Position numbers and translations under genes: made by a program. The notes under the pieces are model-generated. The model ran no database searches. It had not been told where the DNA came from and was given only the letters and a program-made list of their open reading frames with translations. Shown here piece by piece: positions 1-34,986 of a stretch of DNA of 40,002 nt. Numbering within the stretch: the first letter of the stretch is position 1; each line of letters starts with the position of its first letter. The stretch comes from Atractiella rhizophila (taxonomy: Eukaryota): NCBI GenBank assembly GCA_021432655.1, contig MU271607.1, positions 1-40,002 on the forward strand. The letters are read 5' to 3'.

Positions 1-927
1 GAATCTCGACAGATCACTCAAGTCTATGGATTCTACGACGAATGTCTGAGGAAATACGGAAACGCAAACGTTTGGAAATTCTTCACCGATCTCTTCGATT
101 ATCTGCCCCTCACTGCCCTGATCGATGATCAGGTAGGCGTCCTTTCTCTCCCTAACCTTAATACTTTGCCTCCTTTCAATCCTAACGTCATCATCAGATA
201 TTCTGTCTTCACGGCGGCCTCTCCCCCTCCATAGACACCCTCGACCACATCCGCTCCATCGAACGCATTCAAGAGGTACCTCACGAAGGTCCGATGTGCG
301 ACCTCCTCTGGTCCGACCCCGACGATCGTTGTGGATGGGGTATCTCGCCCCGTGGCGCCGGATACACTTTTGGGCAGGACATCAGTGAAGCCTTCAACCA
401 CAACAATGGATTGACATTGGTGGCGAGGGCACATCAGGTGCGTTTATCCTTTCTCTGGCGACGGAGCGGTGTGGGATGAAGCTCCTTTCGTCCAATACGG
501 AATATTCTTCCAGTATCCCCAAGCAGAGGATGGCTGACTGACAGATTGTTGTTGTGACAGCTCGTGATGGAGGGCTTCAACTGGTCGCACGAAAAGAACG
601 TGGTCACGATCTTCTCCGCCCCCAACTATTGCTACCGATGCGGCAACCAGGCGGCGATCATGGAGCTGGACGAGAAGCTCCAATACACCTTGTCAGTCCC
701 TCCCTCGTTTATTCCCCTCATCCCTATCCTCTCCCCTCTCCCCCTTTACCCGATCTCGGTCTTGGTGACTGATCCCATCTGCGATCGACAGCCTCCAGTT
801 TGACCCTGCACCGAGGACCGGGGAACCGTTGGTCTCGCGGAGAGTACCGGACGTGAGTTCATCCCTTCCTTCTTGTCTCCTTGATGCGATCGGAAATTGA
901 TTGGATTGGGTACAGTATTTCCTCTAA
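1..927 (+). CDS. PPH21: Ser/Thr protein phosphatase 2A catalytic subunit, 5'-truncated by the window edge, multi-exon
   Basis: Spliced translation [26 protein letters not shown]...[19 protein letters not shown]...[26 protein letters not shown]...[11 protein letters not shown]...[21 protein letters not shown]. The last exon 916-927 encodes YFL and TAA, giving the PP2A-type DYFL C-terminus. Confidence 0.95.
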
Positions 928-1652: not shown

Positions 1653-2179
1653 ATGTCAGCCACTCCCACCGCCCAGCCCGAAGTGCTCTGGGCACAGCGA
1701 TCGAGGCAGGTCATTTTCTGGTCCCTCGTCAAATGAACAACTTTTATTGATGTTCGATGTGGTGGCTCGCAGCGATGTGGACGCTAACAGGAACGTCATC
1801 TGGCTCACCATCTCCGTACCTGACCTGGATCCGAGTTCTGTCAAGGTGGAATGGACGAATCCTTCCCATCTCAGGTTCGAAGGCACTTCGAACCCTCCTC
1901 ACATGCAGAAAGGGTCGACAGCTTCTCAGGTCGAGAAGAAACACTTTGTGTTCGATTACGACCTCTTTGGAGAGGTGGAGGAGGTGACAGAAAAGAGGAG
2001 GCTGACAAATAAGAGCTTGATTTTGACAGTCAAGAAGAAGAAGCTGACGGAGGAGTATTGGCCAAGGTTGATCAAGGAGAAGAAGAAGGATGACGATGCC
2101 GATCTTCCCCCTCTAGAAGTTCGTCCTTATTCCTCCTCTCCCTCCCCTTGTCCGCTTACTTCTATTTTCGCAACAGTGA
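1653..2179 (+). CDS. SBA1: p23/Sba1/Wos2-like Hsp90 co-chaperone (CS domain), apparently internally shortened
   Basis: Exon 1 (1653-1705) MSATPTAQPEVLWAQRS carries the p23 PEVLWAQR motif. A GC-AG intron (1706-1772) follows. Exon 2 reads ...IWLTISVPD...YWPRLIKEKKKDDDADLPPLE. A probable intron 2119-2176 precedes TGA at 2177-2179. Confidence 0.8.
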
Positions 2180-2954
2180 CACCTTACATGATCGAGGACT
2201 TGCTTGGATCGAACGCTCTTGAAACTCGCCTTACACCGTCTGTTGTGTAGCTATCGACAAGAAATAGCGAAAATAAAATGTCCCATTTATTGTTACATCA
2301 GCTCACATCCTTCGGGTCGCATGCTCGGATTCATCTCTCCATCGGGAGCCTGATCAAAAGTAGCTGAATTACGCAACCGTCCATTCAAACAGTCTCAATA
2401 TCCGACGTCTATGTGTTTGAAAGAGAGCGATAAATATACGCAGGATAAGATGTTGTCACAGGCACTGAATAAATGAAGCGGTACAGGATGTCGATGATGA
2501 GCCTGAGACGGGAGCTACAAAGGAAGTAAAGCAAGAACAGCAAAAAACGGCCGTGTGTTTCAACTTCTCGAGATTGTCCAATTCCACGAGAATGAGGCGG
2601 AAGATTAGGGAGCAAAGATGGGACACGAGTGTTTGCCGATATCATCTCTCTGGAAACGATGATATGGACGATGTTGAAGGGTCGCTGATGGGGTGCGAAG
2701 GGCAGGGAAGATATGAAGGAGCGTAGACGGTGAGAAAGAAATGTGTGATTTAAAGGTGGCGACGGCCGCACTTGGAAAAAGGAGAGTGTTAGTTAAAGAG
2801 AGGATGAGCGCTGACGAGCTGTGGTCCATGGTGCGAGAAACATCTAAAACGGAAAGGGAACGAAGAATAGAGTCCCTTCGCACGTAGTCAGTATTTCATT
2901 TCGACGGGCTGAGAGAATAAGAATGGCGCACAGGGATTCCTACAAGGAATGAGT

Positions 2955-4061
2955 TTAGGACATCGGGGGATAGTCTTCGTCTTCCTTCGGCAGCCTCCGC
3001 TGAACCACAACAAATAATTTCAGCCAGACTGGAAAAGCGTGACGGCAGAAAGGAAGGCGAACTTTGCCTAGCCCGACTCCGACACTTATTGTATCCAGAG
3101 CAAGCGTGGCATTCACTGTGATACCCAGGAGGTTCACATCCTGTATAATCATTAGAAGGAGGCGATGAGAGAACACAAGATACTTACTACGCTACTGTAG
3201 ACCATAATCACAGACGTGGTGAGTAAAAGATTGGGGTCAGTTCATCATGATGCGACTTACATGCTGCTGATAACGACGTCAGCAAACACACATGATCGAT
3301 GGAACGAGAGGACACTCACTCGCTGTCGGCGGAAAAATGGTCCAATTCAGCAATAACTCAGCACATGAGCGGGCAAACTCACCTACTGTAAGAGCAACAG
3401 TGGTCAGCCCAGAAATCAACAAAAGAAAGTTTGTGGAAGAAGAACTTACTCTCTATTCAATAGAATCATGACAAGCGGGTCGCGGTGACCTTGATAAGCA
3501 GGCTTTTGGCACTAGAAAGTATAAACTTACGCGCTGCGATGGAATGTCGCCGTCAGCACTATCCTACGTAACGGAGAGGGAGGGGAGGCTCACCAGCTGC
3601 GACGAAGAATAATCATCGAGCACAGTCAATGTTCTGATTGCAATGATGAAACAATGCTTACCCGCTGATACAGACGTCAGCAAAGATGCAAAAATAGAGA
3701 AACACACGTACCTTCTGTAATTCGCAATTCGAGGAATCACAAGCAGTGAGATTAGTTGATTATTTAGAGCGTTGCACTTACTCCCTATCGCGGAATCAGA
3801 CTTCAATTCTGTCAATCGAGGGACGGAGACCTACCAACTGGGCCCACCAGAACAAGGACGCTCCGTCAGAGGTAAGAAATAATGGCGTGAACAAGAGCGC
3901 ACCATCGAGCCTTTATCCTCCTGCCGCCAATGTGTCAATGATTTACTCAGGTCGAAACACAAGTTAACTTACGCTGCTGGGCTAGATTCGGGGGAGGCAG
4001 CCAAGGCAAGCTGAGTGGTCCACAGTCCCAAAGCGAGAGAGATGAGGGCAGCAGGGCGCAT
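2955..4061 (-). CDS. Micro-exon gene encoding an 88-aa small secreted prepro-peptide (15 exons, ten of them 3 nt)
   Basis: Exons on the minus strand: 4061-3973, 3920-3903, 3837-3835, 3784-3782, 3714-3712, 3664-3662, 3596-3594, 3533-3531, 3452-3450, 3385-3383, 3322-3320, 3263-3261, 3194-3188, 3140-3063, 2999-2955. All 14 introns are GT..AG, 47-78 nt, with branch-like YTRAY/YTGAC motifs. The joined 267 nt is stop-free: MRPAALISLALGLWTTQLALAASPESSPAARIKARCWESGCADSDISVDVNLLGITVNATLALDTISVGVGLGKRRLPKEDEDYPPMS*. Confidence 0.85.
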
Positions 4062-4287
4062 TGTGGATTTTTCGAAAGTGATGATGTACAAAAACAAAGT
4101 GAAAGAGGCCGAAATGAAGGAGGGGAAGGGCCAGGAGCGAGCAGATCGAAAAGATAACGTCGAAGGCAGGCTGCGAGGGCGGGAAAAAGTGAGGGTGCCA
4201 GGCGGCGGGGATATTATACCACTTTTTGGACCGCTGTTCGCGAATTCGACCGCCTTGTAATTAGAAGTTTTGGCGCCGTCCGTTTAC

Positions 4288-4788
4288 ATGAAATTGTTGC
4301 GTGCCGTTCCCCGTCCTTTCTTTGGAACGTTGAGAGCTTTCTTACTCGACAAAGGCAGAAGATGGAAGTATTCTCAGTGCTCGTTGCATTCAAGAAAGAG
4401 GATTATCCACCGTGAAGAACCACTTAGAAGATGTAACTTGAGCAGAGGCAGTGGTCAAAAAATCGTCAAGGTGATGGCAGGACAACAGTTGCTGAAGCGA
4501 GAATTTAGCGAACTCCGGACTTGGAATGGTGGAACGCCACAAGAAACTACGCCCGAAGTATTTCTGTCCTTACAACCGAGCAGGAAGGTCCTCCATTCAA
4601 TCTCAGCCAATCACGCTGCCCGAGTTGATCGAAACCCGAAGAGGTTCGCAAACAGCAGCTTTGAGGTTCGTCTCTTGAGTGCTGAAAAGGAATACATGCT
4701 GTCTTCCCCGGCGTTCACTAAGCGAGCAGAAGTATTCGGAGGTGTGATGGACCATGTGCTAAAATCCGCAAATTTGGGACTATTCTGA
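4288..4788 (+). CDS. Hypothetical protein (start uncertain)
   Basis: Open frame of about 170 codons with a protein-like C-terminal half, divergent from the micro-exon gene. No family recognised. Confidence 0.3.
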   Translation: MKLLRAVPRPFFGTLRAFLLDKGRRWKYSQCSLHSRKRIIHREEPLRRCNLSRGSGQKIVKVMAGQQLLKREFSELRTWNGGTPQETTPEVFLSLQPSRKVLHSISANHAARVDRNPKRFANSSFEVRLLSAEKEYMLSSPAFTKRAEVFGGVMDHVLKSANLGLF

Positions 4789-5049
4789 ACCAATCGGGTT
4801 ATTTGAAAATCATTCATTAACAAACCTTACTTTGCTTGTCCAAGGCACGTCATGTGATTCTAGGAAGCTCTGCACTTTTTGAGTGATCGCGGAGTTGGAG
4901 TTGATCGAGACTTTGGGATTGGGATCCAGTATCGAGAGAGCAGGAAAAGAGAGCTACGAACCGCAGTAAATGTTTCATTATCAGCATTTCTTCCATGCGT
5001 TAACCTGAGTTGACGAGCAGGATAAGGCACAAACATCTGTGAAATCATC

Positions 5050-21355: not shown

Positions 21356-23155
21356 TTACCCAAAAACATCATCCACCTCCATCGCCCTCTTTTCCGCCTT
21401 CTCCAACTCCTCCTCTCTTTCCCTCCTCTCCTTCTCCTCCATTTTCATTTTATACCTCCAACGCATCATCAGCTCTTTTCCATTCCAAGAACGAACCAAA
21501 AAAAACTCACAAAGCAGAATTCGGATCCTTCTCCGGATTCATACACAACCTCAACTGCTTATCCACCGCTCTAACCGTCTCCAACTCCACCTTCCTCTCC
21601 TCCTGCTCCCTAATGCATCGTCCAATCTCCTCCAACAGAAGCTTCATCTCCTCGTTCCCCATTTCGACGTCTCCTTTCTGTGGCTTCAGCTCCTCTTTCG
21701 CCGCTAGCCATCTCCACGCCTCCTCTGGATCCACGAGCACGAAGGTGGCGAGCGCGATCTGGGAAGGGGAGTAGAGGAACTCTAGATCTGTCAATCTCGC
21801 ATGGGCCAGCAAGGCCTGAACATCGGTGAGGCTTTCATGGAGTTTCGAAGCTCTCGTCGGGTCAAGATCGAGGGACTACACCGAACGAACGAGAACGAGA
21901 ACGCGAACGAGAACACGAATGACGGTTGTCAGGTGTGGCAAAGGAGGAGAGAGGGGGGAGAGACGAACCTGCATGTCGAGGAAGAGACCGTAGGCGGCGG
22001 TGTGGGCATGGTGCACTTTGAATTGGAATCCGAGGGATTGACAGATTACGAATTCGAGCTTGAGGATCTGGACGAGCGAATGCTTAGCCCTGCACACAGA
22101 CGTGGATGTTTAGCCAGTTTGGTCTAGATTTTTTAAGAAACTTCTGTAAAAATTCTCTCTGAAATCGTGAGCTGTTGCACACTGTGGACCACCAACGTGT
22201 TCCTGATCGCCTAAATCATCTCGAATGCTTCAAATAGATTATTTTTTGAACGCAGGAGACTCCGTTGATTGGAAGCAAAGGTGGAGCAGTATCCACCACA
22301 TGAGCGCTTTCTTTTCATGCATTTTTTTGATACGAGAATAACGCTTCTTTCAGTTTGTGTGCTCGTCTTTCAGTTCAGAGACGATAACCCTGTATATTTC
22401 ATGCATGGTTCCCTTGCTCTCTAATACGAGTCAATCTCACTACCCAAGCAACAGGGGTAAACACGATATAACTTCTGCCAAACGTGATATTAAATAGAAG
22501 TTAATAAGACAGATGTTTCAGTACATCTATCATGCCAAGTTGTCTTAATCATTTTCCCCAACTCCAGCCTAGCAAATTTCGATATGCATCCAATAGAACG
22601 CGTTTATTTTTTGCACTGTCTACATATATGGATTGCACTTATACATCAAACAATCACCAAATTTTCTGGTGCAGCTCACCATTCCCTCGTACAAAGACAG
22701 AACAACAAAAGACGTACCTCTTCCCGATCAGCTCTAACCATGTCCGCAAATTTATCAGCCTCCACTATCCAATTCTCCGTCTTGGTGCTCAACCAGAGAC
22801 ACGTCAACATGATATTCTTAGGATGATAATCCATCGCCGTGTTCCTCAAATAGAACCGCTTCACATAACTGACCGCCGTCGCCTCCACAGTCTCTGGAAA
22901 GTTGAGGGCGTTGCTAATTTCTCGTATTTTAGACAGATAGAACGTTTGGAGGAGCAACAGCTCGTGAGGAGGTGGAGGATTGAAGGATATGGAGGAGGAG
23001 CCGCTGGAGAGGGAGGATTCGAGACGCATCGCGTTCGAGATGCGCGTCACGGCAGACGCGTGCGTTTCTTCCCGCGCCTTCTGGAGAGAGGGTGGCGTGA
23101 ATCGCCAGTGCAGGTACTGGCTGGACAGCTCGTACGTCGCGATTGGCATTGGCAT
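21356..23155 (-). CDS. CCL1: Cyclin H / Ccl1 / Mcs2 (TFIIK cyclin)
   Basis: YELSSQYLHWRFT; VEATAVSYVKRFYLRNTAMDYHPKNIMLTCLWLSTKTEN; |ILKLEFVICQSLGFQFKVHH; LTDLEFLYSPSQIALA; VDKQLRLCMNPEKDPNSALY; ends DDVFG*. Contains a 650-nt intron at 22068-22717. Confidence 0.9.
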
Positions 23156-23332: not shown

Positions 23333-25572
23333 ATGCCTCCCTCAGCATCTAAACAAAAGCGCCTGGCAGAAAAGGTGAGTCTTCCCGAGTTCCATCTTCA
23401 TCAGTACTCGAAGCTGATCGTTCGTTTCTGTGTACAGGCTGCAAAAGCAGCTTCCAAAGGAGTGAAGGAGAATGGCTCTACCTCCGCTCCATCCACCAAC
23501 GGAACCTCCACCCCGATCGCAGCTTCCAGTCGGACGTCGATGGATGGCTTGGACGAGATGAGCAAGCTCAAATTGGCCACCGATCGCTCAGGCAGCGGCG
23601 TCTTGACGAGCGACCCTCAGAGTAGGGATATCCAGATGGAGAGTTACACGCTTTCTTTCCACGGAAGACTGTTAATCGAGAACGCGAGCATCGCGCTCAA
23701 TTACGGACAGAGGTGAGTTTTTCGCTGCACGATTTGGGAAAGGAAGAGTGATGCGAACTCGTGTTTAGGTATGGGCTGTTGGGAGAGAATGGGTCTGGAA
23801 AGGTGAGCCTTGTTTTCCGGGTGGCGAGAGGACTGGAATGCTGATTTACATCGTCGAAATAGACCACTTTCCTCCGCTCACTCGCTGAGCGAGACGTCGA
23901 GATCCCTTCGCACATTGATGTCTATCTCGTCGCCGGCGAGGTCGAACCTTCGGATGTGAACGCGTTAGATTTCATCGTGAACTCGGCTCGAGAAAAGGTG
24001 GACCGGTTAGAGAAGGAATTGGAGGAGATGATGACCTCTGAATTCCCGGACGATGCCTTGATTCAACAGAAGACGGATGAATTGGAAGAGCTCGATCCTT
24101 CCACTTTCGAGAGCAAGGCTTCTTCCATCCTTCACGGTCTCGGTTTCACGGCTCAGACGATGCTGAAGAGGACCAGGGATATGTCTGGTGGTTGGAGGAT
24201 GCGTGTTGCTCTCGCAAGGGCCCTCTTCATCCGTCCTCACCTTCTTCTCCTCGACGAGCCCACCAATCACTTGGACCTGGAGGCTGTCGTGTGGCTCGAA
24301 GCCTATCTCAGCACTTACAGTCACATCCTCGTCATCACTTCACACTCTGCCGATTTCATGGATTCAATTTGCACAAATATCATGGACCTCAATCACCAAC
24401 GTCGTTTGACCTACTACGGAGGAAATTACTCAGCATACGTGAAGACAAAGACGGAAAACGAAGTCAATCAGATGAAGGCGTACCAAAAGCAGCAGGATGA
24501 GGTTTGTCCTTTCCATCCTTCCAATCCTCACATCGATGGCTGATAGAGATTGATAACAGATTGCACATATCAAGAAGTTCATCGCTTCCGCCGGTACCTA
24601 CGCAAACTTGGTGAAGCAAGCGAAATCGAAACAGAAGATCATCGACAAAATGGAAGCCGCAGGTCTCATCGAGCCCGTCTTTGTTCCTAAACCTCTCCGG
24701 TTCAACTTTGACGACATTCGAAAGATGCCTCCTCCCATCATCGCTTTCAATGATGTCGCATTTTCCTATTCGGGCAAGAAGGAGGATTTCTTGTATCAAG
24801 ACCTTTCCTTCGGTGTTGATATGGACTCGCGTGTGGCTATTGTTGGACAGAACGGAACTGGCAAATCTACTCTCCTCAATCTCATCACTGGGGACTTGAT
24901 GCCAGTCAAGGGAAGCGTATCCCGCCACTCAGGTCTCAAACTTGGTACGTCCAACTTCTCTTTTCCATGTCGATGCTAATGATTGACATCCTGGTCCATG
25001 TAGCCAAATACTCTCAGCACTCCGCGGACCAGTTACCGTACGACAAATCCCCTCTGGAGCACTTCGAGTCCACATACAAGCAACGTTTCCCCGAACGAGA
25101 CACTCAAGCCTGGCGCGCTCAGCTTGGTCGTTTCGGTCTTTCAGGCGCACATCAAACTGCCGCCATCCGCACGCTCTCTGACGGATTGCGGAATCGAGTC
25201 GTCTTCTCCCAACTGGCAATGGAGCAACCTCACGTCCTGCTCCTCGACGAACCTACGAACCATCTTGATATGGGTTCGATCGACGCTCTGGCGCGAGCGA
25301 TCAAGGAGTATGAGGGAGGAGTCGTCATTGTTTCTCACGATTTCAGACTCATCAGTCAGGTCGCGGAGGAATTGTGGGAGGTTAAGGATAAGAAGATTGT
25401 CAATCTCACTAAGCAGGATATCAATATTCAGCAGTACAAGAAGATCCTGTCGGATCGGTCGCAAAAGTTCGTTTTTCCTTACGTTCTTTCTGACAATGGG
25501 TATTGATGAAGGAATAGGCAAATCGAAAAGGCCAAATTGGTTTCGAAGGCTGCGAAATCTAACAAGGTCTAG
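23333..25572 (+). CDS. ARB1: ABC-F ATPase Arb1/ABCF2
   Basis: [14 protein letters not shown]; two ABC cassettes ([56 protein letters not shown]); linker [19 protein letters not shown]; no TM domains. Confidence 0.95.
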
Positions 25573-31347: not shown

Positions 31348-32256
31348 NNNNNNNNNNNNNNNNNNNNNNNNNNNNNNNNNNNNNNNNNNNNNNNNNNNNN
31401 NNNNNNNNNNNNNNNNNNNNNNNNNNNNNNNNNNNNNNNNNNNNNNNNNNNNNNNNNNNNNNNNNNNNNNNNNNNNNNNNNNNNNNNNNNNNNNNNNNNN
31501 NNNNNNNNNNNNNNNNNNNNNNNNNNNNNNNNNNNNNNNNNNNNNNNNNNNNNNNNNNNNNNNNNNNNNNNNNNNNNNNNNNNNNNNNNNNNNNNNNNNN
31601 NNNNNNNNNNNNNNNNNNNNNNNNNNNNNNNNNNNNNNNNNNNNNNNNNNNNNNNNNNNNNNNNNNNNNNNNNNNNNNNNNNNNNNNNNNNNNNNNNNNN
31701 NNNNNNNNNNNNNNNNNNNNNNNNNNNNNNNNNNNNNNNNNNNNNNNNNNNNNNNNNNNNNNNNNNNNNNNNNNNNNNNNNNNNNNNNNNNNNNNNNNNN
31801 NNNNNNNNNNNNNNNNNNNNNNNNNNNNNNNNNNNNNNNNNNNNNNNNNNNNNNNNNNNNNNNNNNNNNNNNNNNNNNNNNNNNNNNNNNNNNNNNNNNN
31901 NNNNNNNNNNNNNNNNNNNNNNNNNNNNNNNNNNNNNNNNNNNNNNNNNNNNNNNNNNNNNNNNNNNNNNNNNNNNNNNNNNNNNNNNNNNNNNNNNNNN
32001 NNNNNNNNNNNNNNNNNNNNNNNNNNNNNNNNNNNNNNNNNNNNNNNNNNNNNNNNNNNNNNNNNNNNNNNNNNNNNNNNNNNNNNNNNNNNNNNNNNNN
32101 NNNNNNNNNNNNNNNNNNNNNNNNNNNNNNNNNNNNNNNNNNNNNNNNNNNNNNNNNNNNNNNNNNNNNNNNNNNNNNNNNNNNNNNNNNNNNNNNNNNN
32201 NNNNNNNNNNNNNNNNNNNNNNNNNNNNNNNNNNNNNNNNNNNNNNNNNNNNNNNN
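31348..32256. other. Assembly gap (909 N)
   Basis: Run of N inside the LTR element. Confidence 1.
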
Positions 32257-32586
32257 TCAGTCCATGCAGAACTTGAGCAACGAGCATATGAGAGGGGGCA
32301 ACAGTCTAGACTAACTAAACTAGAAATTCGGCCAAAGCTCAAGCTGAAAGCGAAACTTTAGAAACTTTCCACCTCTTCTGTAGCCTAAACACGAACTCTT
32401 CCATTTAGGTGAAAGAGGAGCTGCGCAGCAGCAGCACTTTGACTGGGTCATAAGTCGAGGTGGCTAGCTGAAGTGTCCGCGCCCCGGGGTGTGTAGCCAC
32501 ACCTACTCGAGCTCGACGGGTAAACCGTGCAAAGCGTCCAGGACTCCCCTTGCCCTCAAACCTAACTGCTGGTTCCTCTGTAGGCC

Positions 32587-34986
32587 GTGTACCACTCACT
32601 ACTAGGAGGAGAGGGTGAAGGTAAGGAGATTGGTAAAGAAAGAAAACGTCGAGGAACTCAGGCCGATTGGGGTCCACCGGCTCGGACGTTACGGTCTGTA
32701 CTCTCCTCGCACGGTATCAAACACGAACACACGGCTGCTTACACTCCTCAACAAAATGGTGTCGCGGAGCGTCTCAACCTCACTATTGCTGCTCTCATTC
32801 GTTCCACCCTCCATTCCTCCGATCTCCCCAAAAAGCTGTGGGGAGAGCTTGCCGTCGCAGCAATCCACATCATAAATCGTCGTCCAACGTCCGCGCTTGA
32901 AGGCAAGACGCCGTTTGAAGCCTGGACGGGCAAGAAACCGTCAGTTGAACACTTGCGAGTGCTGGGATGCAAAACTTACAGCCTTATCCCGCCTGAACCG
33001 AACCGACAAAAGCTTGATGCACGTTCGTGGGAAGGGAGATTGGTTGGTTATGACTGGGAAAGCAAGACTTATCGAATCTACAATCCCAAGAATGGGTCAG
33101 TAACCAAACACCTGCATGTTCAATTCGACGAGACCTACCCTGCATCTCTCCTGCAACCTGTCGAAGTCCAAACGAACGAAGTGATGGACCCTCCTGCTCC
33201 AAAAGAACAGTCAGAGAAGGTAGGAGACGGAGAAGAACAAAATGAGGGGGAGAGACCCACCGAAGTTCCATCGAAGGCGAAGCCTGACACACTTCCGCCT
33301 CGCGAACGCTCCCAGCGTACACGCCGTTCTCCTGCAGAAGCTCAGAAAGAAAACAGAACAAAGTATTTCGGGGACTCACCTCTTTCTGACGCTGTCGCCC
33401 GCATCACCGTTGCCTCGCCCACGCGAAACCTCACTCCGTCCTATGAGGAAGCTGTCAATGGTCCAAATGCCTCTCGTTGGAAGGACGCTTTCGACGAGGA
33501 GAGAGGGTCATGGAAAGAGAGAGAAGTTGGGGAGATGGGTCCGTTGCCTGAGGGGGAAAACGCAATTGGTTCGCGTTGGGTATTGAGGGAGAAGTTGGGT
33601 CCAGATGGAGAAACCATCCGTTTCCGTGCAAGGGTCGTTGCCCAAGGCTTCACGCAGCGCGAGGGCATCGACTATCAAGAAACCTTCTCCCCGGTCCTCT
33701 CCATGCCGTCGTTCCGCCTGATCCTGTCCATCGCTGCGAAGAATAAGTGGCCTGTCCATATGGTCGACATTTCAGCGGCATATCTCTACGGGAAACTTGA
33801 CAAACCTGTGTACCTTCGACCTCCTCCTGGCTGGGAAAATCCCGAACACCCAGACTGGGTCATTAAAGTCACGAAAGGAGTGTACGGTCTTCATCAGAGT
33901 GGTCGCGTTTGGAACGGGGATGCGAATGAGAAGTTGAAGAGCATGGGCTTCAAACAGTGCAAGTCAGAATCAACTATCTACACGAAGAGGGATGAGAAGA
34001 CTGGTAGATACGTACTGGTGGCAGTTTATGTCGACGACTTCCTTATCGTTGCCGAAAGCGACGAAGAAGCTGCACCGGTCAAAGAAGAACTTAGAAGACA
34101 TTACAAACTCAAAGATGAAGGCAGAGCTCACCATTTCCTTGGAATTCGCATTATCCAATCCAACGACGGAATCTCCATTGACCAAGAAGCCTACGTTGAG
34201 CGCCTGTTGGAGAAGTTTGGGATGGCAAACTGCAAGCCAGTTTCAACCCCGTTCGAACTTGGACAGAAGTTAGAACCAGCGACGGAGGAGGACAAAGAAG
34301 CTCACATCGACGAGCCGTGGACCGGTCGCTATCGAGAAGCTGTCGGCTCTCTGCTATTCCTCATGGTCGCCACTCGACCGGACCTCGCTTTCGCCGTCAC
34401 GCAAGTTGCTCAGTTCGCTGAGAAGCCTTCGTCGCAGCACTGGAAGGCCGTGAAGAGGATCTTTCGTTACCTGCGAGGCACCTCAGACTTGAAGATAGTC
34501 TACCAAAGTGGAGGAGAAGAACTTACTGGTTACTCAGATTCAGACTTTGCCGCTTCGCACGATCGTAAGTCGATTTCCGGAACACTGTTCATAAATGCTG
34601 GTGGAGCGGTTGTTTGGAGAAGCAAGAAGCAATCCGTTGTTACCCTCTCAAGCACTGAGGCTGAATACGTTGCTCTTTCCGTCGCCGCAAGGGAAGCTTC
34701 GTGGCTCCGCAACCTTCTCAACGACCTCGGTTTCCCTATCGACGGTCCGATCGACATCTTTGGCGACAACCTAGGCTCCCATCAGCTTGCCAACAACCCT
34801 GTCTTTCGACAACGAACGAAGCACATCGACATACCTTTCCACTACACCCGCGAATGTGTCTTCAACGGCAAAATCAAGCTGCTTTACATGGATACGAAGG
34901 ACCTTCCTGCAGATATGCTTACGAAAGGTGTTTCGAGGATGAAGATGGACAATGCGATGAAGGAGATTGGAATGGATGGAAAGTAG
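32587..34986 (+). CDS. pol: Copia pol fragment: C-terminal half of integrase, reverse transcriptase and RNase H (homology starts near 32700)
   Basis: GIKHEHTAAYTPQQNGVAER, KLDARS, HVQFDE, RFRARVVAQGFTQREGIDYQETFSPV, VDISAAYLYG, YVDD, YSDSDFA, SSTEAEY, RTKHIDIPFHY. The frame is uninterrupted. Confidence 0.95.
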   Translation: MYHSLLGGEGEGKEIGKERKRRGTQADWGPPARTLRSVLSSHGIKHEHTAAYTPQQNGVAERLNLTIAALIRSTLHSSDLPKKLWGELAVAAIHIINRRPTSALEGKTPFEAWTGKKPSVEHLRVLGCKTYSLIPPEPNRQKLDARSWEGRLVGYDWESKTYRIYNPKNGSVTKHLHVQFDETYPASLLQPVEVQTNEVMDPPAPKEQSEKVGDGEEQNEGERPTEVPSKAKPDTLPPRERSQRTRRSPAEAQKENRTKYFGDSPLSDAVARITVASPTRNLTPSYEEAVNGPNASRWKDAFDEERGSWKEREVGEMGPLPEGENAIGSRWVLREKLGPDGETIRFRARVVAQGFTQREGIDYQETFSPVLSMPSFRLILSIAAKNKWPVHMVDISAAYLYGKLDKPVYLRPPPGWENPEHPDWVIKVTKGVYGLHQSGRVWNGDANEKLKSMGFKQCKSESTIYTKRDEKTGRYVLVAVYVDDFLIVAESDEEAAPVKEELRRHYKLKDEGRAHHFLGIRIIQSNDGISIDQEAYVERLLEKFGMANCKPVSTPFELGQKLEPATEEDKEAHIDEPWTGRYREAVGSLLFLMVATRPDLAFAVTQVAQFAEKPSSQHWKAVKRIFRYLRGTSDLKIVYQSGGEELTGYSDSDFAASHDRKSISGTLFINAGGAVVWRSKKQSVVTLSSTEAEYVALSVAAREASWLRNLLNDLGFPIDGPIDIFGDNLGSHQLANNPVFRQRTKHIDIPFHYTRECVFNGKIKLLYMDTKDLPADMLTKGVSRMKMDNAMKEIGMDGK

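Follow-up and report, generated by a model that had tools for sequence, protein, structure and literature searches.

A run of single-codon exons in a small gene of the fungus Atractiella rhizophila

How small can exons become, and how closely can introns follow one another, in a gene that is still spliced? The question is raised by a small gene of Atractiella rhizophila, a root-associated member of Pucciniomycotina. The gene lies on the minus strand of a stretch of 40,002 nucleotides (nt), referred to below as the window, which comprises positions 1 to 40,002 of the forward strand of contig MU271607.1 (NCBI GenBank assembly GCA_021432655.1). A sequence-only reading of the window had noticed ten triplets in close succession, each set between AG and GT. 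It had taken them for ten consecutive 3-nt micro-exons, joined into messenger RNA (mRNA) with one intron per codon, in a gene that might tune a secreted peptide residue by residue through exon skipping, in the manner of the micro-exon genes (MEGs) of Schistosoma.

In assembled RNA the micro-exons are joined as proposed, with one of them corrected in length. We consider it probable that this is a real, expressed nuclear gene built as a constitutively spliced chain of single-codon exons, an arrangement made workable by fungal intron definition. Below we set out the structure and the RNA that carries it, weigh this reading against its rivals, and compare the gene with systems in which very short exons or closely juxtaposed splice sites are known.

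Exon-intron structure and its presence in assembled RNA

The gene runs on the minus strand from an ATG at 4061 to a TAA at 2957-2955 and encodes a product of 89 residues in 270 coding nt (Table 1). In the window sequence, AG, a triplet and GT follow one another at all ten sites (minus strand, spacing 50-81 nt), and the triplets have the coordinates and letters first given for them. The 18-nt exon before and the 7-nt exon after them are likewise present. Nine of the ten stand as 3-nt exons. The tenth, in contrast to the original proposal, is a 6-nt exon (CAGCAT), so that nine of the ten micro-exons between 3261 and 3837 have a length of 3 nt and the last has 6 nt. The acceptor of this tenth exon is a tandem CAG-CAG of the NAGNAG type (3264-3269, minus strand). 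Its upstream AG is used in the X6 and X24 contigs described below and in the NCBI model, and no use of the downstream AG was seen in the contigs; if used, it would drop one Ser.

The introns around the micro-exons are canonical and 47-78 nt long. Introns 1 to 12 are all in phase 2, in agreement with the sequence-only reading, and joining the triplets keeps a single open frame. The nine 3-nt exons and the 6-nt exon give a stretch of twelve residues, C-W-E-S-G-C-A-D-S-D-S-I, which matches the peptide first proposed (C-W-E-S-G-C-A-D-S-D-I) apart from one Ser missing from the latter. All ten micro-exons are multiples of 3 and the 18-nt exon is likewise symmetric; the 7-nt exon is not. Together the ten account for 33 of the 270 coding nt; counting the 18- and 7-nt exons as well raises this to 58. 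Further downstream the early picture has to be changed. The open frame after the micro-exons had been thought uninterrupted, because the 63-nt intron 14 (3062-3000) is itself in frame and open. This intron is removed in all four runs (X1, X24, X2 and X6), giving a product of 89 and not about 110 residues.

The RNA data are assembled contigs from public runs X1, X24, X2 and X6 (four of the 24 listed), aligned on positions 2500-4500; the remaining runs (X3-X5 and X7-X23) match the stretch in small shares and do not enter the evidence. In X24, X6 and X2 contig cover is absent over the introns, which is mentioned as an observation and given no weight here. For comparison, a predicted block of 58 nt was put together from the coordinates of the window's exons 2 to 13, in which the tenth micro-exon was given 6 nt. 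An X6 contig of 441 nt matches the window from 4353 to 3972 (the 5' untranslated region, or UTR, and exon 1) and then continues for 56 letters without a match nearby, while a second X6 contig holds exon 14 (3063-3140) and 31 further letters. These loose ends together span the whole 58-nt block and are identical to the prediction at every position. X24 has the same two loose ends with a single difference: exon 10 begins with another letter, a synonymous change in the joined frame. The micro-exons are thus joined into mRNA, as had been proposed; the spliced string first predicted was 3 nt too short at the tenth micro-exon, and the block itself was found. X1 has a joint from 3140 to 3972, for which the intervening letters were not reported.

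X1 also contains two partly spliced contigs. In one, exon 2, TTG and GGA are joined and run into retained intron 4; in the other, the end of intron 4 continues through AAG, CGG, CTG and CGC into retained intron 8. Since such intermediates join spliced micro-exons to introns of the locus at 3261-3837, the splicing is tied to this locus. They reveal that introns 2, 3, 5, 6 and 7 can be removed while 4 and 8 stay, and the removal order in these intermediates is not simply 5' to 3'. The two laggard introns are the two longest; intron 8 is without a YTRAY branch-like motif, and that of intron 4 lies 37 nt from the acceptor.

Joints that skip a micro-exon are not listed in the contigs of the four runs, and the contigs that reach the block have either full inclusion or retained introns. 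Full inclusion is the dominant assembled form. In X24 two variant contigs with depths of 128 and 121, each continuing into the block, add up to the depth of 249 over exon 14. The second variant, which differs at 3138-3140 in X24 and X6 and fits the database protein P0002 (see below), is joined to the same micro-exon block, so that the array, or at least its distal part, must be present in a paralogue too. As an observation in its own right, orthologue-like and P0002-like transcripts occur in X24 at near-equal depth (128 and 121).

The arrangement is far from what chance would produce. On its two strands the window contains 44 matches to the pattern AGNNNGTRVG, compared with 23.0 +/- 5.6 (largest 37) in 100 dinucleotide shuffles. 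Ten of the 44 fall within the 584 nt at 3256-3839 on the minus strand, where 0.17 are expected (Poisson P(>=10) ~4e-15). With a looser scan, other AG-NNN-GT clusters in the window reach groups of three at most; two clusters at 22959-23136 (plus strand) and 25053-25238 (minus strand) lie within ordinary coding sequence and were set aside as chance matches. The plus strand of 2900-4100 has no open frame of note.

Table 1. Parts of the micro-exon gene, in order of transcription (window coordinates)
Feature	Positions	Strand	Evidence and remarks
Exon 1, coding part, 89 nt, about 30 residues	3973..4061	-	sequence, phase 2 at its end; X6 contig 3972-4353; 29 of 30 residues as in P0001
Intron 1, 52 nt	between 3973 and 3920	-	window sequence
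Exon 2, 18 nt, followed by weak donor GTGCGC	3903..3920	-	RNA loose ends at 3972 (X24, X6) and at 3785 (X1)
3-nt exon TTG	3835..3837	-	loose ends in X24, X6 and X1
3-nt exon GGA	3782..3784	-	sequence and RNA contigs; next intron (67 nt, 3781-3715) kept in X1 intermediate
3-nt exon AAG	3712..3714	-	X1 joint 3534->3712, the 5 letters between corresponding to CGG+CTG
3-nt exon CGG	3662..3664	-	sequence and RNA contigs
3-nt exon CTG	3594..3596	-	sequence and RNA contigs
3-nt exon CGC	3531..3533	-	sequence and RNA contigs; next intron (78 nt, 3530-3453), without YTRAY, kept in X1 intermediate
3-nt exon AGA	3450..3452	-	sequence and RNA contigs
3-nt exon TAG (exon 10)	3383..3385	-	sequence and RNA contigs; CAG in X24, TAG in X6
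3-nt exon CGA	3320..3322	-	sequence and RNA contigs
6-nt exon CAGCAT, tenth micro-exon	3261..3266	-	X24/X6 loose ends at 3140 and 3138; 6-nt prediction matches; same exon used in P0001
7-nt exon TAGCGTA, phase 2 to 0	3188..3194	-	sequence and RNA contigs
Exon 14, 78 nt, 26 residues, most conserved part of the family	3063..3140	-	RNA contigs; P0001, P0002
Intron 14, 63 nt, donor GTTCGC, in frame and open	3000..3062	-	joint 2999->3063 in X1, X24, X2, X6; its 21 residues absent from P0001 and P0002
Exon 15: last 14 residues, TAA, start of 3' UTR	2932..2999	-	RNA contigs
3' UTR intron, 56 nt, donor GTGCGC, beginning 24 nt past the TAA	2876..2931	-	joint 2874->2931 (cut +1) in X1, X24, X2
3' UTR, down to end of region examined	2500..2875	-	RNA contig cover

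Splice signals, a possible mechanism and the rival explanations

How could introns only one codon apart be spliced? All 11 donors that follow the tiny exons (introns 3-13) carry G at +5, and 9 of the 11 carry A at +4, while GTGCGC or GTTCGC is the donor in three of the four remaining introns of the gene. The donors of introns 3-13 are closer to GTRAGT than the other donors seen, among them those of a neighbouring phosphatase gene (GTAGGC and GTGCGT, read by eye); on this small sample the early remark that they are stronger than those of neighbouring genes holds. Branch-like motifs before the acceptors had been noted as well, and YTRAY is present in 11 of the 13 introns upstream of exon 14. A period-two pattern of branch-site quality was also considered, and found no support in the alignments. 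Moreover, retention of any single one of introns 1-13 leads to an early stop, which falls at +2 to +4 for 10 of the 12 introns 2-13. Because the introns are in phase 2, donors such as GTAAG, GTGAG and GTAGG place TAA, TGA or TAG at these positions, and an RNA keeping such an intron is therefore truncated at once.

Fungal introns are usually recognised one by one (intron definition), and the length of 47-78 nt and the YTRAY motif in 11 of 13 introns fit such intron-by-intron recognition. Each intron would be recognised singly. A 3-nt exon coincides with positions -3 to -1, the exonic part, of the 5' splice site that follows it. Each 'codon plus intron' unit would therefore carry complete signals and be unaffected by the removal of its neighbour. 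Removal would have to be stepwise, because two spliceosomes cannot sit 3 nt apart. As for its origin, the equal length and phase of the exons suggest that a 3-nt exon, together with portions of the introns on either side, was duplicated locally several times and that the copies then diverged; we find the case for and against this origin about evenly balanced. We take the one-intron-per-codon architecture to be tolerated rather than required for function.

Three other explanations compete with a constitutively spliced chain, and the same contigs bear on all of them. The first is the diversification suggested by the sequence-only reading, that is, symmetric single-codon exons that are skipped combinatorially to yield secreted peptides differing by single residues. 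The design would allow it: all ten exons are multiples of 3 and keep the frame in any combination, and our computation reproduced the earlier statement that eight of the ten single skips stay open, the other two (GGA or CGC) creating a TGA. The signal-peptide-like exon 1, the small lineage-restricted protein and the presence of at least two gene copies recall the schistosome MEGs (bioRxiv 10.1101/2023.06.21.545858); nine codons are absent from the P0001 model, and one Ser could be gained or lost at CAGCAG (3264-3269). Against this, the contigs of the four runs hold no skipping joint, although rare variants would be dropped by contigs, and the whole block is present in those of X6 and X24. In X24, moreover, the two contigs that bear the block explain all of the exon 14 depth. 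The strong donors point to efficient constitutive use, and two of the ten single skips create a stop. The proposal thus finds no support here, and we regard combinatorial skipping as quite unlikely. We are equally doubtful of its broader form, a fungal family that encodes a secreted peptide codon by codon, each single-codon exon independently included or skipped and the Ser at CAGCAG optional. If independent skipping were true, one locus of a root endophyte would supply a combinatorial set of peptides to the interaction with plant or microbes. It would be an independent fungal invention of the schistosome MEG principle at its finest grain, with the stop-bearing phase-2 donors acting as proof-reading.

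The partly spliced RNAs of X1 could be read differently, as signs of an expression gate. Here the twelve packed introns would be removed slowly or in a condition-dependent manner, a retained intron would lead to a stop and probably to decay, and splicing efficiency would set the output. It fits this idea that the introns kept in X1 (4 and 8) are the two longest and without a well-placed YTRAY, that the product is cut short when a single one of introns 1-13 is retained, and that intron retention is the main regulated mode of splicing in fungi (general knowledge; PMC12861292). However, any gene may be expected to show intermediates in total RNA, those of X1 have a depth of 3-7 compared with 11-25 for the exons, and the X1 contig at 3505-3620, being colinear with the genome, may be DNA. 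On balance a gate seems unlikely. There is also the possibility that the splicing does not occur at this locus at all: the block would then stem from a paralogue or retrocopy without introns, and the AG-NNN-GT run would be a decayed or non-functional copy. A paralogue does exist, and the search for copies was limited to the window rather than the whole genome. Yet the X1 intermediates join micro-exons to retained introns of this very locus, contigs that hold the block extend into exon 1 and exon 14 with a likeness of 95-100%, and ten perfect AG/GT pairs with the right letters cannot be chance; we find this explanation scarcely credible.

The constitutively spliced chain, which we prefer to these three, has points of its own against it. 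The RNA evidence consists of contigs and not raw reads, so that rare isoforms are dropped and no quantities are given. That X1, X6 and X24 are RNA libraries is a guess, for which their spliced joints argue; X2, the sole run recorded as RNA, covers 2683-3117 only and is silent on the micro-exons, supporting the two downstream introns alone. The product is predicted from sequence and RNA contigs, and P0001, which skips nine 3-nt exons, could be a real minor isoform instead of a prediction error. Of the suggested origin by duplication the sequence bears hardly a mark: Tandem Repeats Finder reports no array in 2500-4600, and the intron cores have a mean local alignment score of 7.4 compared with 6.9 when shuffled (a value reached by 1% of shuffles) with an unexceptional maximum. 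In alignments the introns have only splice and branch signals in common, except for the last ~20 nt of introns 5 and 11.

Comparison with known micro-exon and juxtaposed-intron systems

The original paper on MEGs is that of DeMarco et al. from 2010. In the MEGs of Schistosoma a signal-peptide first exon is followed by 10-20 symmetric exons of 6-81 base pairs (bp), mostly 15 bp, with introns of 0.1-5 kilobases; the micro-exons make up most of the coding sequence and alternative splicing is documented (bioRxiv 10.1101/2023.06.21.545858). The Atractiella gene resembles them in its central run of very short multiple-of-3 exons behind a conventional, signal-peptide-like first exon, and in its small, probably secreted, lineage-specific product, which is encoded in at least two copies and is hard for automatic annotation. 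It differs in that its exons are of 3 nt, its introns of 47-78 nt, and its micro-exons only 33 of 270 coding nt. Skipping variants, documented in Schistosoma, were not seen here in the contigs of the four runs, and the host is a fungus rather than a flatworm. No sequence similarity to MEG proteins was found; the protein searches gave two A. rhizophila proteins only.

Isolated ultra-short exons are known from fungi. For example, 26 genes of Coprinopsis cinerea together contain 27 exons of 3 nt (PMC12230235), and an exon of 1 nt occurs in Fusarium CYP621A (PMC12940212). These cases share with the present gene a length of 1-3 nt, short canonical introns, correct splicing and the fact that predictors miss them. 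By the quoted counts, however, a Coprinopsis gene has at most two 3-nt exons, whereas here nine 3-nt exons, a 6-nt exon and a 7-nt exon are consecutive, with no normal exon between. Adjacent micro-exons occur in animals and plants as well: human RPS24 has adjacent micro-exons of 3, 18 and 22 bp (PMC12207440), and a rice transcript has adjacent exons of 5 and 12 nt (PMC8831610). Such clusters are alike in having neighbouring micro-exons (two or three in those cases), one of them of 3 bp. They differ in having far fewer units, long introns and exon definition with dedicated regulators, and many are alternatively spliced.

Recursive splicing proceeds through an AG|GT junction that leaves nothing in the mRNA. 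Its ratchet points, and likewise stwintrons, resemble the present array in that 3' and 5' splice sites are closely juxtaposed and stepwise removal is forced. Unlike at recursive splice sites, every triplet stays in the RNA contigs. In stwintrons one intron interrupts another's signals (PMC6616335), while every intron here is complete.

Literature searches, made without supplements and with many subscription papers outside their reach, found no report of runs of single-codon exons or of Atractiella gene structure; the sequence-only reading had likewise named no described run of ten. The gene is an extreme variant of micro-exon architecture for which no earlier description was found. With nine 3-nt exons, a 6-nt and a 7-nt exon all present in assembled mRNA, it sets a natural lower limit for the size and spacing of exons, and indicates that an intron-definition spliceosome can handle a dozen introns one codon apart. 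It also offers a model for the order in which abutting introns are removed, for the use by U1 and U5 of an exon that is nothing but positions -3 to -1, and for strong intronic signals that make up for missing exon context. How a same-phase, one-intron-per-codon array arises and persists is the evolutionary question that it raises. More such genes may be hidden among the small secreted proteins of fungi (the usual effector candidates). The structure is of interest for specialists in both splicing and annotation.

Product, gene models and surroundings

By eye, exon 1 encodes a basic residue, a hydrophobic stretch and an Ala-rich part with an Ala-x-Ala-like end. It thus has the look of the signal-peptide exon that the sequence-only reading had taken it for, and the product is probably secreted. 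The 89-residue protein also has a C-x4-C motif, an N-A-T sequon and a K-R-R site ahead of an acidic tail. Searches of 5.8 billion proteins, with the translated last exon and then the best match as queries, gave two relatives, P0001 (80 residues) and P0002 (50 residues), both entered at NCBI as 'hypothetical protein [Atractiella rhizophila]'. A HMMER search with P0001 over 1.84 billion representatives gave P0002 as its single match. Pfam has no family above its cut-off; the ESM Atlas model of P0001 is of low confidence only (predicted local distance difference test, pLDDT, 0.44), and its bacterial look-alikes are meaningless. In metagenome contigs 595 pattern matches were found and none was confirmed, and tblastn found no paralogue within the window.

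The two database proteins illustrate what the architecture does to annotation. P0001 is identical to the window in 29 of 30 residues of exon 1 and in all but one residue of its C-terminal part, and between them its 18-nt exon is joined straight to the 6-nt exon, so that nine codons are missing. The N-terminus of P0002 is the translated end of the intron before the 7-nt exon, and everything upstream is absent. That gene predictors would miss the micro-exons had been foreseen, and neither model contains the 3-nt exons. Both public gene models of the family are wrong, and the correct 89-residue protein was not found among the 5.8 billion database proteins.

At the 5' end, contigs extend to at least 4353 in X6 and cover reaches 4440 in X24, at a depth below that of exon 1. 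A TATAAT-like box occupies 4218-4213, and near 4388 and 4287 there are short upstream ATGs, of which one reads ATG-TAA. The lower depth, the box and the upstream ATGs suggest that the main start lies around 4110-4180 and that there is also a longer, minor form. At the 3' end, the X6 joints of the UTR intron are placed differently and carry extra letters, because the X6 sequence is more divergent there. The 3' UTR also includes a 74-codon, ATG-initiated open frame (2606-2830, minus strand), over which the X24 depth is ~1200-1560 compared with 130-400 over the coding exons. This high depth may reflect summed paralogues or 3' bias or, alternatively, a separate small transcript. A search of 2000-5000 against Rfam gave a single sub-threshold match of microRNA (miRNA)-like type at 2072-2147, taken as chance.

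The gene has ordinary nuclear neighbours in the window: a PP2A-type phosphatase, a MIF4G protein, an ABC-F ATPase, Med17 and a copia-type retroelement. The phosphatase gene (PP2A-type Ser/Thr phosphatase with a Metallophos domain, 1-900, plus strand) is truncated by the window start and has short introns, with the donors GTAGGC and GTGCGT noted by eye. At 31348-32256 (plus strand) a run of 909 N bases adjoins an open frame of 799 codons (32587-34983, plus strand), which encodes copia-type reverse transcriptase and retroviral SH3-like domains. The stretch 31348-34983 has the appearance of a Ty1/copia retroelement that adjoins an assembly gap or masked sequence.

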